DNA of 11,407 nucleotides, from the IMG/VR virus record IMGVR_UViG_3300005541_000153. The stretch is one strand, 5' to 3'. Of this stretch, positions 1 through 2,503 are shown one piece after another; position 1 is the stretch's first letter, and each line of letters starts with the position of its first letter. Position numbers and translations under genes: made by a program. The notes beneath the pieces were generated by a model. That model did not search any database. It was not told the DNA's origin and saw only the letters and a program-made list of their open reading frames with translations. Origin of the DNA: a virus.

Positions 1-2503
1 TCTCGATGCCGAGGACTTCGGCGTCGTAGATCCGCATGCCGTTCTCGGGGAACGTCGTGCCCGTGCGCTCTTCCGTCTTGGACGGCTTCGCACCCAGGAT
101 GATGTCACGCAGGATCGGCGTGTGGTTGGAGTAGAACTCCTCGATGCCGAGCTTCTGCACCGCGCTGCGGATTCGGGACCGCATGGCGTCGCACAGGAAC
201 TTGACGTAGTTGTCGACGTTGAACCAGCTGTCGCTGTCGCCCTCGAAGTTGACGCGGTACGACACCTTCACGTTGATCCTGCAGAAGTCCTTGGTCTCGA
301 CCTGGACGATGTCAGTGACCATGTTGTTGGCGACCTGCAGGTACACCGTGCGGAGGATGTTGTCCGTCGACTTGGGCTTGCCCGTCGAGAGCGAGAGAAC
401 CTGGGGGCTCTCGTCGTACTCGAACATGAAGGTGCCCGGCCCCTGGATGACCCGGCGGGTGTCGCTCTTGCTGACGAGCAGCATCGCGAAGCCGGTCCAG
501 AGGGTGACGCCGACGGCGCCGTCGTACTTGGTGTTGAGGATGACCGAGCGCGGTGCGGTGAACTTCGCCTTGCGGTCGAAGGCATCGCCCGGCAGGGACT
601 TGCTCGCTGCTTTGATCAGGATGCGGCCGCGGCCGACGTCCGGGGTGGCCGCTGCTGCGACCGCGCCATACGCCTCGTTCTCCGTATCGCTGCGGACGTA
701 GGCGCTGTTGAGGTAGGCTGCGTTGGCGCCGCCTGCCCCCATGAAGTCCACGTCCTCGACACCGAGGCGAGCTGCGTTGACCGCCAGGGCCTCTTCGTTG
801 CCCGGGTAGAGCAGGCCGACGAGGTCGAGGGGCAGTGCACGCTGGAGGATAACCTGGGTGCGGGGATCCGGGAGGAAGATCTTCGGACCTGACACCAGGC
901 TCGCTTCGCCGGTGAGGCGGTTGAGCACGTAGCGGGCTTCGCCCGGCGGGATCGCAATCCCGTAGTGGACGTCCTGCTCACCGTACTTGATGATGGCGTG
1001 CTCCTCACGGGGGAAGTACACCGGCTGCTCGTTGCCCGTGATGAAGAGCTCCTGGCCCGCGGTCCGCTTGGTGGTGCCGTCGGCCTCGGTGTAGTCCGCG
1101 ATGACGCGGATGTGGATGCCGCTCGTCGGGGTGAGCTCCTGGGCGCGGAACTTCTTCGCCTTCACCTTGTCCGGGTTGGACTTGATGGGAGCCTCGACGA
1201 ACTTCTCGGTCGGGCGGGGGAACACGACGTCCGGGCCGATGACGTAGCGCTTGTTGCCGTTCTGATCGAGCAGCAAGCAGTACTCGAGGCGCTCGAGCGA
1301 GCAGGCCTCACGGACCATGCGCTCTTCGCCGCTCACCTTCTCGGGAACGACTTCGATGCCTGTCGGCGGGATGTAGAAGGAGACCTCGGTGCCTCGGACC
1401 ACGAAGAGCTTGCCCATCGTGAGGTCATCGGCCGTCGGGATGTCGCTGGAGGCGCGGCCCGATGCTTCGATGCTGCGGTGCGGGCGCTTCGTGGCCTCGT
1501 GCCCTTCGCTCCCAGCGGAGCCAGCGGATCCGGTGTCACCCTGCGTCTTGACGACTGCCTTGCCGTAGTTGGCCTTCGCGGCCTCCTCGTCGTAGACCCG
1601 GCAGAGCAGGTACTCGTTCGACTTCAGCGAGTGGCCCTGGACCACCTTCGCCATCTGGCCAGGCCACAGCGGGAACGACTGCGGTCCCGCGATGTTGACC
1701 TTCTTGCCGACCCGGAGGTTCGGCGTGGAGAGCTTGCCCTGGCCCGTCGGGTGCTTGTCACCCTCGGCCGGGTTCTTCAGGACGATGTACCAGCCCTCGG
1801 GCGCTGTCTGGAACAGCTGGATGCCCTGGTCCCGTTGGACCGCCGAGAACCGCTTCGTCTTGAGGTCGAACTTGACGAGCTGGTCGGTGCCGGCCAGGCT
1901 CTGCTTGTTGGGACCGACGAAGACGTTGACTTCGCCCTTGGTCTCATCGCTGATGTATGCGAACTCGTTCGGGGCCAGGATCATGTCCTGGACTCGGCGA
2001 GCGCCGCGGAGGTCTTCTTCGCTCATTGCATCTCTCTTTTCTGTGGCCGGAGCCGTTGTGTGTCTGGACTCTACTTCTCGTTTCGGTTGCTTTACACTCG
2101 GTTTTGAAGTTGCCGGCGTCGCCGACGAAGTCTGCTTGGGAGGGTCACGGAGTTCCTGGAGACGGGCTGCCTCTTCGCCAGTGAGATCAGGTCCCCACTT
2201 GATGCCGCTGCGCTGCGGAGGGCGGGCTGTCTGCGATGATGACAGGGTGCCAGTGAGGGGACGGCGCTGCAACATCGATCGCGTGTCGCGGAGCTTCTCC
2301 TCCATGATCCGATCGACTGCGCTCTGCTCGTAGCCGAAGGCGTTGAGGTTCCCGTAGAACTCGTCGATGTCCTTGGCTCGTTTCTGCTGCACCGGGTCGC
2401 GCTCGTCGATGCTCCCCTTGCCCCCGCAGTACGGGCACTGTGCTCGGCTTCCCGGTGCGGACTGGTACCAGCCGCTGCCGCGGCACATCTTGCATTTCGT
2501 CAT
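1..2503 (-). CDS. Partial CDS: the C-terminal end runs off the left edge, so more than 834 aa are visible. The N-terminus has two DnaJ-type zinc-finger motifs (CKMCRGSG, CPYCGGKG), then a Ser/Thr/Pro/Lys/Gln-rich low-complexity linker, then major-vault-protein (MVP)-like repeats and an SPFH/band-7-like shoulder domain.
   Basis: The minus-strand frame is open without a stop from the ATG at 2503..2501 to position 2. It is absent from the ORF track because it has no in-window stop. The ATG overlaps the upstream stop (tcat at 2500..2503, i.e. ATGA). The body shows at least five repeats containing (V/I)xGPxxF/YxP, for example VNVFVGPNKQSL, NIAGPQSFPLWPGQ, VVRGTEVSFYIPPTG, VIGPDVVFPRPTE, LVSGPKIFLPDPRTQ and VIQGPGTFMFEYDESPQVLSLSTGKPK. 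These resemble MVP repeats such as VEVGPKTYI, DPFPLYPGE, EGPGTYIPRKEV and QFTVLSLSAGRPK. Residues encoded near 1..400 read RINVKVSYRVNFEGD...FLCDAMRSRIRSAVQKLGIEEFYSNHTPILRDIILG, resembling the MVP shoulder/SPFH region (LAYNWHFEVND...[35 protein letters not shown]). GC3 is high over the zinc-finger and MVP parts. An internal ATG at 2026..2024, preceded by the purine-rich GAAAAGAGAGA, is an alternative start. Confidence 0.8.
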   Translation of the reverse strand, partial: MTKCKMCRGSGWYQSAPGSRAQCPYCGGKGSIDERDPVQQKRAKDIDEFYGNLNAFGYEQSAVDRIMEEKLRDTRSMLQRRPLTGTLSSSQTARPPQRSGIKWGPDLTGEEAARLQELRDPPKQTSSATPATSKPSVKQPKREVESRHTTAPATEKRDAMSEEDLRGARRVQDMILAPNEFAYISDETKGEVNVFVGPNKQSLAGTDQLVKFDLKTKRFSAVQRDQGIQLFQTAPEGWYIVLKNPAEGDKHPTGQGKLSTPNLRVGKKVNIAGPQSFPLWPGQMAKVVQGHSLKSNEYLLCRVYDEEAAKANYGKAVVKTQGDTGSAGSAGSEGHEATKRPHRSIEASGRASSDIPTADDLTMGKLFVVRGTEVSFYIPPTGIEVVPEKVSGEERMVREACSLERLEYCLLLDQNGNKRYVIGPDVVFPRPTEKFVEAPIKSNPDKVKAKKFRAQELTPTSGIHIRVIADYTEADGTTKRTAGQELFITGNEQPVYFPREEHAIIKYGEQDVHYGIAIPPGEARYVLNRLTGEASLVSGPKIFLPDPRTQVILQRALPLDLVGLLYPGNEEALAVNAARLGVEDVDFMGAGGANAAYLNSAYVRSDTENEAYGAVAAAATPDVGRGRILIKAASKSLPGDAFDRKAKFTAPRSVILNTKYDGAVGVTLWTGFAMLLVSKSDTRRVIQGPGTFMFEYDESPQVLSLSTGKPKSTDNILRTVYLQVANNMVTDIVQVETKDFCRINVKVSYRVNFEGDSDSWFNVDNYVKFLCDAMRSRIRSAVQKLGIEEFYSNHTPILRDIILGAKPSKTEERTGTTFPENGMRIYDAEVLGIE

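Follow-up and report, generated by a model that had tools for sequence, protein, structure and literature searches.

A fused major vault protein gene in a huge phage

The window analyzed here, an 11,407-nucleotide stretch of viral DNA, is a piece of a huge (jumbo) phage genome in which the gene for major vault protein (MVP), which forms the shell of the vault particles of eukaryotes, has gained a 159-codon N-terminal extension (Table 1). From the ATG at 2503, one uninterrupted frame on the minus strand extends through 834 codons to the first base of the window, and the complete gene of 1060 codons (encoding P0001) is present at locus L028, which is identical to window positions 1 to 4091. An earlier note on this DNA had stated that no stop codon precedes the internal ATG of the MSEEDL reading frame, and the frame was indeed open from 2503 to 2026. 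The AGGAG element upstream of the first ATG has a duplex energy with the 16S tail of -7.4 kcal/mol, which places it in the top 4% of gene positions, and the M-x-K-C start is shared by homologs. The upstream neighbor was assigned to the GT2 family through Pfam Glycos_transf_2 (E 5e-6) and phrog_13126 (E 2e-12); at the extension-bearing loci L001 and L024 to L027, the upstream position is taken by small ORFs that lack a recorded Pfam match. Small-ORF paralogy was supported by BLASTP for only one clear pair.

Table 1. Features of the fused gene and its upstream neighbor, in window coordinates
Feature	Position	Strand	Remarks
Upstream GT2-family glycosyltransferase gene	2500..3537	-	Neighbor coupled to the long-form start; outside the fusion
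AGGAG Shine-Dalgarno (SD) element	2512..2516	-	8 nt 5' of the long-form start; read from sequence
Long-isoform start codon	2501..2503	-	Overlaps TGA of the upstream GT2 gene (ATGA, 2503-2500)
Zinc ribbon, aa 1-32	2408..2503	-	CKMCRGSG (aa 4-11) and CPYCGGKG (aa 23-30); four Cys, one predicted zinc site
Two-helix conserved module, aa 33-78	2270..2407	-	RA.D...FYG....GY....V.RIL.EK; alignment and AF2
Variable basic disordered linker, aa 79-135	2099..2269	-	P/S/T/Q-rich; length variation, pLDDT, GC3
Final 24 extension codons	2027..2098	-	SVKQPKREVESRHTTAPATEKRDA; ancestral 5'UTR/translation-initiation region for MVP, now part of the open frame
Purine-rich SD-like element	2031..2041	-	GAAAAGAGAGA; 5' of the internal ATG
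Internal in-frame ATG, Met160	2024..2026	-	Short (canonical) MVP isoform proposed to start here; protein begins MSEEDL
MVP core	1..2026	-	Beta-repeat domains, Vault_3, shoulder; gene continues past the window start

The core from Met160 is a full major vault protein, given that the shoulder, an N-terminal array of beta-sandwich repeats, and the long cap helix were all found. The SPFH-like shoulder (Pfam MVP_shoulder, PF11978) was matched at aa 726 to 834 (nt 2 to 328; E 5.5e-29, 101 bits against a cutoff of 25) and Vault_3 at aa 680 to 723 (nt 335 to 466; E 4e-9, 36.9 bits against a cutoff of 28.8), while Pfam Vault stayed below threshold. In the AF2 models, the shoulder (about aa 660 to 835) reached a pLDDT of 85 to 92, aa 180 to 705 formed a beta-rich region whose N-terminal repeats were modeled at moderate confidence only, and full-length P0001 carried a continuous cap helix of 147 residues (aa 838 to 984), beyond the window. 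By phmmer, aa 681 to 998 aligned to MVP residues 476 to 793, and MVP chains in the PDB were matched by sequence at an E value of 3e-20. The top 12 PDB matches to the AF2 model by Foldseek were all MVP (E 2e-26 to 9e-23), with alignments to full MVP chains extending over 870 to 1015 columns, and the R1-R7 crystal structures were matched at 4e-7.

No sigma-70-like promoter was found between 1800 and 3700, the single terminator-like site was at chance level, and neither Rfam nor tRNA scans found anything in the window. A conserved motif, GACACACAACGGC (2052 to 2064), was considered as a repeated phage promoter and discarded, with 3 window matches against 5.7 expected and no enrichment.

Composition and occurrence of the N-terminal extension

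The extension opens with the two CxxCxGxG repeats that the earlier note had described. None of 300 shuffled windows contained a motif pair with a spacing of 5 to 25 aa, and a six-frame scan of the real window found no pair but the one at the start of the fused frame. Alignments of extension-bearing sequences showed C7, G11, C23, C26, G28, and G30 to be invariant, and C4 was found in every sequence with a complete N terminus (P0003 was called from Met6); the first motif of L025 departs from the consensus as CxxCxxxG. The region was modeled by AF2 as beta-hairpins (block pLDDT 74 to 86), and its dN/dS of 0.09 to 0.24 among the closest relatives indicates that it is under purifying selection. Two CxxC knuckles, predicted hairpins, and invariant cysteines agree with a generic four-cysteine zinc ribbon or knuckle, with a zinc site that is predicted.

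The description of this module as DnaJ-type held only as a resemblance of motifs. DnaJ and Anti-TRAP were the best Pfam matches to aa 2 to 36, and both fell below their gathering cutoffs: Anti-TRAP (PF15777, aa 2 to 32) scored 22.7 bits against 32 (E 9.7e-5), and DnaJ_CXXCXGXG (PF00684) scored 16.1 bits against 32.7 (E 0.014). A Pfam scan of the window's 834 aa returned no DnaJ or other chaperone domain. The cysteine-rich domain of DnaJ has four CxxCxGxG motifs that form two zinc centers and is embedded in an Hsp40 with C-terminal substrate-binding domains. The phage module shares the CxxCxGxG pairs of the DnaJ and Anti-TRAP domains, with zinc chelation predicted in its case, but it has two motifs rather than DnaJ's four, enough for one zinc site, and lacks a J domain and a G/F region. 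By these sequence comparisons, the module resembles the DnaJ zinc finger only and lies outside that family.

The second module, two helices predicted by AF2 at aa 37 to 55 and 60 to 78 (block pLDDT about 48 to 82), has invariant A43, Y50, Y58, I66, and K70 and a dN/dS of 0.33 to 0.65. A HMMER search of 1.84 billion representatives found no homolog of it beyond the MVP fusions. The whole extension (A5), searched exhaustively against the same representatives, gave 52 matches, nearly all to the zinc motif alone and none at or below 1e-10, leaving the helices and linker without relatives elsewhere. A profile of the zinc finger plus helices (A2) returned 7 weak matches (E 1e-5 to 5e-3) from a 5.8-billion-protein collection, and these were small proteins with multiple CxxCxGxG motifs, as are the nearest database relatives of the zinc module; the A2 search missed known fusions and is thus little informative on how frequent such fusions are. 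A Foldseek search of the PDB with the N-terminal AF2 model gave nothing significant (best E 0.66, lambda Q). Neither the fold search nor the family profiles gave the zinc ribbon a significant match from which a ligand could be named.

The earlier note had placed about 125 low-complexity codons after the zinc finger. This proved too long, since aa 33 to 78 are conserved and predicted to be helical, and disorder is confined to about aa 79 to 159, a stretch rich in P/T/R/S/A/Q/K. The linker (pLDDT about 30) differs between relatives by tens of codons, always with the frame kept, and the extension as a whole is basic (pI 8.7 to 9.6, net charge +3 to +8). The lower GC3 and A-ending codons ascribed to the whole region are likewise a property of the linker (GC3 0.63) and chiefly of the final 24 codons (0.38), whereas GC3 is 0.84 in the zinc finger, 0.89 in the helices, and 0.91 in the core. 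The A3 of the final 24 codons is 0.50, against 0.05 in the core.

The earlier note had proposed comparison with MVP homologs for an equivalent N-terminal extension. Such an extension was found in frame with MVP in eight distinct huge-phage loci from different metagenome records (the window/L028, L001, L002/L012, L024, L025, L026, L027, and L031), at 28 to 51% extension identity to the window and despite linker indels, so the in-frame order of zinc finger, linker, and MVP is a recurrent arrangement. Given that the extension is in frame, conserved in these loci, and under purifying selection, the comparison indicates that a 1060-aa long isoform is made from the ATG at 2503. About 35 further homologous loci, starting at the equivalent of Met160, do not carry the extension, and most MVP homologs, close relatives included, have no zinc module. 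In a neighbor-joining tree of the first 330 core residues, built without support values, the extension-bearing MVPs fell into two separate clades, which implies loss or exchange of the extension in the past and a basic role of MVP that does not depend on it. MVPs of the present clade come from metagenomic phage contigs that reach 436 kb, and more distant relatives are found on phage records of 462 to 735 kb.

Initiation features around Met160

Met160 is invariant in the extension-bearing sequences and corresponds to the start codon of the extension-less homologs. The earlier note had credited this internal ATG with its own SD-like element, and a purine run is present, but it is weak: its energy here is -4.9 kcal/mol (top 20% only), compared to -7.4 at the ATG at 2503. 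Energies ranged from -4.1 to -6.6 at the other extension-bearing loci and averaged -6.4 at the genuine starts of 26 extension-less homologs. In several loci, the element includes the rare arginine codon AGA (cGG-AGA motif). The region from -30 to +20 around the internal ATG ranked among the 0 to 6.5% least structured 50-nt windows of the gene in 7/7 loci, and the true starts of extension-less relatives were likewise among the least structured windows in 18/20 cases; the openness of the first ATG was unremarkable (ranks 4.6 to 76%). As in a nested gene, an invariant internal ATG is thus accompanied by its own ribosome-binding region and an open RNA window. One pipeline's gene call for an ortholog also starts at the internal ATG (P0005, L002).

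The codons immediately upstream of Met160 point to the origin of these features. In nucleotides, the final 24 extension codons resemble the 5'UTRs of extension-less homologs (CACA.CACGG / cGGAGAaca / GAAAAGAGA), which identifies them as the ancestral 5'UTR, now translated and kept at the nucleotide level inside the open reading frame. Their dS is 0.2 to 0.8 and their dN/dS is 0.4 to 1.6; elsewhere in the extension, dS is higher or saturated in most comparisons. Synonymous conservation before Met160 (0.84 to 0.89 identical codons) forms a local peak that other parts of the gene exceed, so the codon scan alone is not decisive.

The earlier note had left a choice between a fusion protein and two products from internal initiation. 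The fusion is present, and the evidence favors both products, given that the internal ATG keeps the sequence, the SD-like element, and the openness of its relatives' genuine starts; the gene probably yields both tagged and untagged forms of MVP. We also considered that the 1060-aa fusion could be the single product, with Met160 an ordinary residue and the open SD-like segment a leftover of the fusion or a consequence of constraint on the peptide. The stronger SD element of the first ATG and its coupling to the upstream gene are in keeping with that reading, as are the conservation of the segment as a peptide (VKRP..EV.S.HTTA.ATERR) and a synonymous peak that is not the top value of the gene. 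However, the initiation features persist even though other synonymous sites of the extension are mostly more diverged or saturated, amelioration has removed neither the low GC3 nor the rare AGA codons, and the segment is as open as true starts. A dN close to dS also fits constraint on nucleotides better than constraint on the peptide. We regard a single product as rather unlikely.

Proposed shell organization and relation to known systems

We lean toward a model of nested long and short isoforms in which the long form places a zinc-ribbon tether in the lumen of the shell, at its waist. Ribosomes would initiate at the ATG at 2026 as well as at 2503, giving a canonical 901-aa MVP, and the long:short ratio would be set by the two initiation sites, with the long isoform at substoichiometric dosage. 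By homology with eukaryotic vaults, the long isoform would display zinc ribbons on flexible, positively charged tethers at the inner equator of the shell. Most likely, these modules would either hold or recruit cargo, in the form of nucleic acid or of a partner protein, or reinforce the junction between the two halves. The placement follows from eukaryotic MVP, whose N termini converge on the inner waist and tolerate N-terminal fusions: tags such as a cysteine-rich peptide, GFP, or an epitope lie inside at the waist without blocking assembly, and longer tags give more internal density (PMC6680493). For phage and bacterial MVP, a position at the waist and in the lumen is an extrapolation from these eukaryotic particles.

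Like eukaryotic MVP (rat, human, and rabbit; PDB 4V60, 7PKZ, 9BW5, and 9Z4W), the phage protein has beta repeats, an SPFH-like shoulder, a cap helix (about 41 turns, against about 42 as the mark of the family), and a C-terminal tail, and each of the top 12 fold matches spans most of the chain. On our reading of the conserved DMILAPNE block, the short isoform would start where eukaryotic MVP does, a few residues before the first repeat. Unlike its eukaryotic counterparts, the phage MVP is encoded by a huge phage, an uncultured one recorded from metagenomes only, shares only 16 to 17% identity with them, and would form a particle that is so far putative; unlike the solved MVPs matched here, it adds a 159-residue extension of zinc ribbon, helices, and tether. 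Engineered vaults with N-terminal tags offer a parallel, in that a foreign module, in one case cysteine rich, is placed on the MVP N terminus (PMC6680493). The phage module differs in being natural and longer (159 aa), in having a flexible basic tether, and in being probably dosed by a second start instead of being carried on all subunits.

In-frame nested genes with internal initiation are familiar from lambda C/Nu3 and S107/S105, T7 gene 4A/4B, and IF2 alpha/beta. The MVP gene would resemble these in having one open reading frame that is entered at two in-frame start codons, each served by a ribosome-binding region of its own, and a shared C-terminal body. It differs from them in that the internal start is demonstrably ancestral and the upstream start added, and in that production of both forms is inferred.

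Another possibility is that the zinc module serves as a DnaJ-like folding or assembly aid, or as a handle for dimerization of nascent chains, and is clipped off within the linker so that mature particles contain canonical MVP only. The zinc modules of DnaJ and Anti-TRAP typically carry CxxCxGxG motifs, a long disordered linker would be open to proteases, and a Peptidase_M24 gene a few kilobases downstream of MVP is conserved in L001, L024, and L025. However, Pfam M24 comprises methionine and X-Pro peptidases rather than endoproteases able to cut a linker, and any cleavage motif or protease link would be hypothetical. The single zinc site in place of two, the missing J domain, and the subthreshold family scores also argue against such an aid, as does the absence of the module from most MVP homologs, close relatives among them, and we consider this explanation quite improbable. 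Least probable by far, and already largely refuted, is an artifact, whether a separate small zinc-finger gene whose stop or frameshift was lost by assembly error or recent pseudogenization or an upstream frame that is not translated: some gene callers annotate the short form only (P0005), but a missed stop or frameshift is implausible when divergent loci from separate records all keep one open frame through variable linkers, the zinc finger is under selection, and neither a motif scan within 6 kb of extension-less MVP genes nor tblastn against all fetched loci found a separate, terminated zinc-finger gene (the case that the earlier note had named as refuting) or a remnant of one.

MVP has been reported from noneukaryotic genomes before, in bacteria (bioRxiv 10.1101/872010) and in the gut phages ctOa11 and ctRi15 (bioRxiv 10.1101/2023.11.10.566534), so a phage MVP as such is not new. 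The latter preprint, with its two gut phages, is the only previous report of a phage-encoded MVP, and neither preprint refers to a zinc finger or to an extended N terminus. A full-text literature search found no paper joining "major vault protein" with the terms jumbo, huge, mega, or giant phage.

The function of vaults is still unclear after decades of study. The natural variant described here has a predicted, tethered zinc module on the N terminus, which in eukaryotic vaults faces the lumen, and also appears to hold a built-in means of dosing that module. More tentatively, and with doubt prevailing, huge soil phages might build their own vault-like compartment, with the shell gene of one lineage being self-loading: a minority long isoform, dosed by the second start, would catch nucleic-acid or protein cargo on equatorial zinc-ribbon tethers. 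Such a shell, if real, would be a natural counterpart of N-terminally tagged engineered vaults and of cargo-fused encapsulins. If the tether binds cargo, knowing what that cargo is would open a first way into the function of a vault from a prokaryote or virus, and would also supply a template for the design of cargo loading in engineered vault nanoparticles. The fusion also matters for annotation, given that gene callers disagree on the start and both the long and the short forms are found in public data.

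A zinc-ribbon extension on a phage major vault protein

The gene under study encodes a huge-phage major vault protein (MVP) that carries, in one lineage, a zinc-ribbon tether fused to its N-terminus. The fusion came about via read-through of a former 5'UTR and probably works as a nested long/short pair. The protein body has the MVP-defining features that we tested, namely the repeats, the shoulder and the cap helix. It matched the Pfam families MVP_shoulder (E 5.5e-29) and Vault_3 (E 4e-9), phmmer against PDB sequences returned MVP chains exclusively (E 3e-20), and an AlphaFold2 model (61 homologs) gave a beta-rich repeat region, the shoulder at pLDDT 85-92, and a single 147-residue helix at aa 838-984. 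The best 12 Foldseek matches in the PDB were all MVP of rat, human or rabbit (E 2e-26 to 9e-23), followed in rank by flotillin, the murine MVP R1-R7 crystal structures and other SPFH-family proteins. The MVP core, from Met160 onward, also has the highest GC3 among the window genes checked (0.91; seven neighbours, 0.72-0.86), and dS between relatives is lower in the core than in the extension, which is consistent with strong codon selection, i.e., high expression.

From ATG 2503, the MVP frame runs without a stop for 834 codons, up to window position 1. The full gene is 1060 codons long according to an identical database protein (P0001) and to locus L028, which matches window positions 1-4091 at 100% identity and extends beyond the window start. 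Two CxxCxGxG motifs open the frame, CKMCRGSG at residues 4-11 and CPYCGGKG at residues 23-30; a six-frame scan of the window found this pair only, and such a pair occurred in 0 of 300 shuffled windows, confirming the earlier note's report of both motifs and of an open frame into MSEEDL. The description there of about 125 low-complexity codons with lower GC3 and A-ending codons held for aa 79-159, a stretch rich in P/T/R/S/A/Q/K in which GC3 is 0.63 in the linker and 0.38 in the last 24 codons (half of which end in A), but not further upstream, where residues 33-78 form a conserved, predicted two-helix module and GC3 is 0.84 in the zinc finger and 0.89 in the helices. Through an ATGA overlap, translation of the long MVP isoform is coupled to that of the upstream glycosyltransferase gene. 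This coupling seems peculiar to this phage, given that in L001 and L024-L027, the further loci with the extension that were examined, the upstream genes are small and have no recorded Pfam hit.

Features of the window, of the MVP extension and of related loci
Feature	Position	Strand or source	Remark
Long-form start ATG	2503-2501	minus	overlaps TGA of upstream glycosyltransferase gene (ATGA)
AGGAG	2516-2512	minus	upstream of ATG 2503
Family-2 glycosyltransferase (GT2) gene	2500-3537	minus	upstream neighbour; phrog_13126 'beta-1,4-glycosyltransferase', E 2e-12
Internal ATG, Met160 (MSEEDL...)	2026-2024	minus	preceded by purine run GAAAAGAGAGA at 2041-2031
Two adjacent small genes	9536-9838, 9835-10176	plus	clear tandem paralogs, 34% identity, E 4e-15
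Further regions with ORFs of the '(K/R)PGDLV' pattern	4458-7110; 10083-10460	minus; plus	
Zinc-ribbon hairpins	residues 1-32	AlphaFold2	pLDDT 74-86 (10-residue block means)
Two helices	residues 37-78	AlphaFold2	pLDDT about 48-82 (10-residue block means)
Disordered	residues 79-163	AlphaFold2	pLDDT about 30 (10-residue block means)
Features in related loci	L001 13256-15178; L024 9134-11053, 14942-15054; L025 4753-5613, 9636-10271		all outside the window

The fusion of zinc finger, linker and MVP was found in one open frame in eight distinct loci: the window/L028, L001 (=L003, L032), L002 (=L012, L029), L024, L025, L026 (=L033), L027 (=L030) and L031. In these loci, the extension is 28-51% identical to the window sequence and the linker varies in length by tens of codons, with the frame unbroken throughout. 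A further ~35 distinct loci (39-81% identity) are without the extension, and in these an in-frame stop precedes the Met160-equivalent Met by no more than 54 codons. Neither a separately terminated zinc-finger gene in the homologs nor a decayed one in the extension-less loci was found by a motif scan within 6 kb or by tblastn across all fetched loci, and the interpretation of the earlier note is supported. A neighbor-joining tree, built without support values from the N-terminal 330 residues of the core, placed the extension-bearing genes in two separate clades (L028, L001, L002 and L027; L024, L025 and L026), each sister to extension-less sequences. Given that the extension is clearly homologous between both clades, this topology would imply either repeated loss (two or more events) or exchange of the gene's 5' end by recombination. 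Database protein lengths under-count the fusion because public annotations differ as to where the gene starts. P0005 (890 aa; L002 9521-12673) is called from the internal ATG, and its frame is open for 160 codons further up, encoding the zinc ribbon (1050 codons in total); P0003 (L027 966-4124) is called from Met6, with a family-fitting GTG start located three codons ahead of its first Cys.

The former 5'UTR and a probable internal start

The last 24 codons of the extension encode SVKQPKREVESRHTTAPATEKRDA, and the 5'UTRs of extension-less homologs, translated in the MVP frame, give, e.g., QLAATTRRNETM, HITRKTERHTM and ATTHHKKTERFTM. The nucleotide motifs CACA.CACGG, cGGAGAaca and GAAAAGAGA are common to the extension-less 5'UTRs and the extension-bearing genes. 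These sequence likenesses indicate that the 24 codons are a one-time MVP-gene 5'UTR, now translated, and of separate origin.

The purine-rich, SD-like element reported ahead of the Met160 ATG is present, and its duplex with the 16S tail is weak in the window, at -4.9 kcal/mol. The remaining seven loci with the extension span -4.1 to -6.6, and the authentic starts of 26 homologs without it have a mean of -6.4. The 50-nt RNA window from -30 to +20 at the internal ATG ranked among the least structured 0-6.5% of the gene in all seven of seven loci, and at or below 0.6% in four. The same open signature was found at 18 of 20 true starts of extension-less relatives (median rank, 0.2%), and the upstream ATG that starts the long form ranked from 4.6% to 76%. 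The 24 UTR-derived codons have a dS of 0.2-0.8 and a dN/dS of 0.4-1.6, and dS in the rest of the extension is mostly above 0.8 or saturated across comparisons, a pattern characteristic of nucleotide-level constraint. The rare Arg codon AGA lies within the cGG-AGA motif in several loci, with one or two AGA per gene where present, and an independent gene caller picked the internal start in L002. Thus, five lines of evidence (SD strength, RNA structure, substitution pattern, composition and gene calling) indicate that the ancestral initiation region is still maintained.

On balance, we lean toward both the long (1060-aa) and short (901-aa) isoforms being made. We considered that there could be a single long product, with the initiation region a relic. 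The first ATG has a better SD than the internal ATG as well as coupling to the gene upstream, and a synonymous-codon scan gave a local peak only, with the gene-wide maximum elsewhere. However, the initiation signature persists even though divergence elsewhere in the extension is high or saturated, and we regard a relic as rather unlikely.

Class, placement and conservation of the zinc ribbon

The zinc finger had been described as DnaJ-type, which is accurate for the spelling of its motifs but not for family membership. Assignment to the DnaJ cysteine-rich domain was rejected, given that this domain has four CxxCxGxG motifs whereas the phage module has two and scored 16.1 bits against a cut-off of 32.7; Anti-TRAP was also rejected (22.7 bits versus a cut-off of 32). 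When the extension profile was run exhaustively with HMMER against 1.84 billion cluster representatives, 52 matches had E <= 0.001, and none reached 1e-10. Nearly all of them span profile positions 2-40 only, i.e., the zinc motif, and come from small proteins in which CxxCxGxG occurs several times; the picture from a word-indexed search agrees, and in both searches the helices and linker had no relatives beyond these MVP genes. Because the matches are nearly all limited to the zinc motif, the zinc ribbon can be placed by sequence in a broad DnaJ/Anti-TRAP-like motif class, and the module is most aptly called a generic zinc ribbon with a single site, its motifs being spelled as in DnaJ. Another CxxC...CxxC zinc-ribbon-like motif is found in a small phage gene in the 3' part of ORF 7402-8100 (window ~7405-7620, minus strand), which encodes a short protein starting MKIIRQPKPPMKEVECTCQECETVVSC...WQCPTCHRDNY.

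All eight extensions are basic, with a pI of 8.7-9.6 and a net charge of +3 to +8. The N-termini of MVP in eukaryotic vaults are located at the waist on the inner face, assembly proceeds with N-terminal fusions (cysteine-rich peptide, GFP and others) placed in the lumen, and longer N-terminal tags lead to more internal density (PMC6680493). If assembly occurs as in eukaryotes, the zinc-ribbon modules would sit inside the shell at the equator on flexible basic tethers of ~80 residues, and co-assembly of the long and short isoforms would set their number. The most likely role is cargo capture (nucleic acid or partner protein) or reinforcement of the half-to-half junction, and any choice between these two is one that we would have to infer. 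Pfam, Foldseek and HMMER gave the module no significant family or fold match that could point to a ligand. A built-in DnaJ-like assembly aid that is later clipped off is improbable, since the extension has one zinc site without a J domain and most relatives do without the module.

Cys7, Cys23, Cys26, Gly11, Gly28 and Gly30 are invariant across the extension-bearing alignments, and Cys4 is present in all sequences with a complete N-terminus. By the Nei-Gojobori method, the zinc ribbon has a dN/dS of 0.09-0.24 between closer relatives, and the helices and linker have values of 0.17-0.65 in comparisons with unsaturated dS, showing that the extension is translated and under selection. An artefact, or an untranslated upstream frame, is therefore highly implausible, being contradicted by this purifying selection and by the eight in-frame loci.

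Vault genes on phage contigs and small paralogous ORFs

The homolog contigs are phage-like, with many short genes without Pfam hits and genes for a Gp23-like capsid protein, Peptidase_M24 and PEPCK nearby; in related loci, the Peptidase_M24 and Gp23-like capsid-family genes lie within a few kb of the MVP gene, and PEPCK is found in L025. The next gene downstream of MVP in L001 and L024 encodes a 640-aa Band_7/SPFH protein, and the MVP-SPFH gene pair may be a functional module in huge phages. IMG/VR contigs with an MVP gene extend up to 436 kb, more distant relatives (42-43% identity) are carried on 462-kb and 735-kb 'uncultured phage' records (LR756500, LR756501 and LR756503), and a collection search in which 8000 candidates were scored gave at least 5556 homologs at E <= 0.001. 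Bacterial MVPs were the subject of a 2019 preprint (bioRxiv 10.1101/872010) and phage MVPs, from two gut phages, of a 2023 preprint (bioRxiv 10.1101/2023.11.10.566534); neither mentions a zinc finger or N-terminal extension. The presence of MVP genes on many huge-phage contigs, compared to only two gut phages in the literature found, may matter more than the fusion.

Besides the tandem paralogs, the pattern '(K/R)PGDLV ... GW ... L..V' was seen by eye in about ten further window ORFs of 81-125 aa. BLASTP among these small ORFs linked one other pair only, and weakly (4220-4438 and 5443-5778, E 0.006), and there was no credible Pfam hit among the seven ORFs scanned. Apparent orthologs of ORFs 4458-4703 and 4700-4993 are located upstream of the MVP gene in L002.
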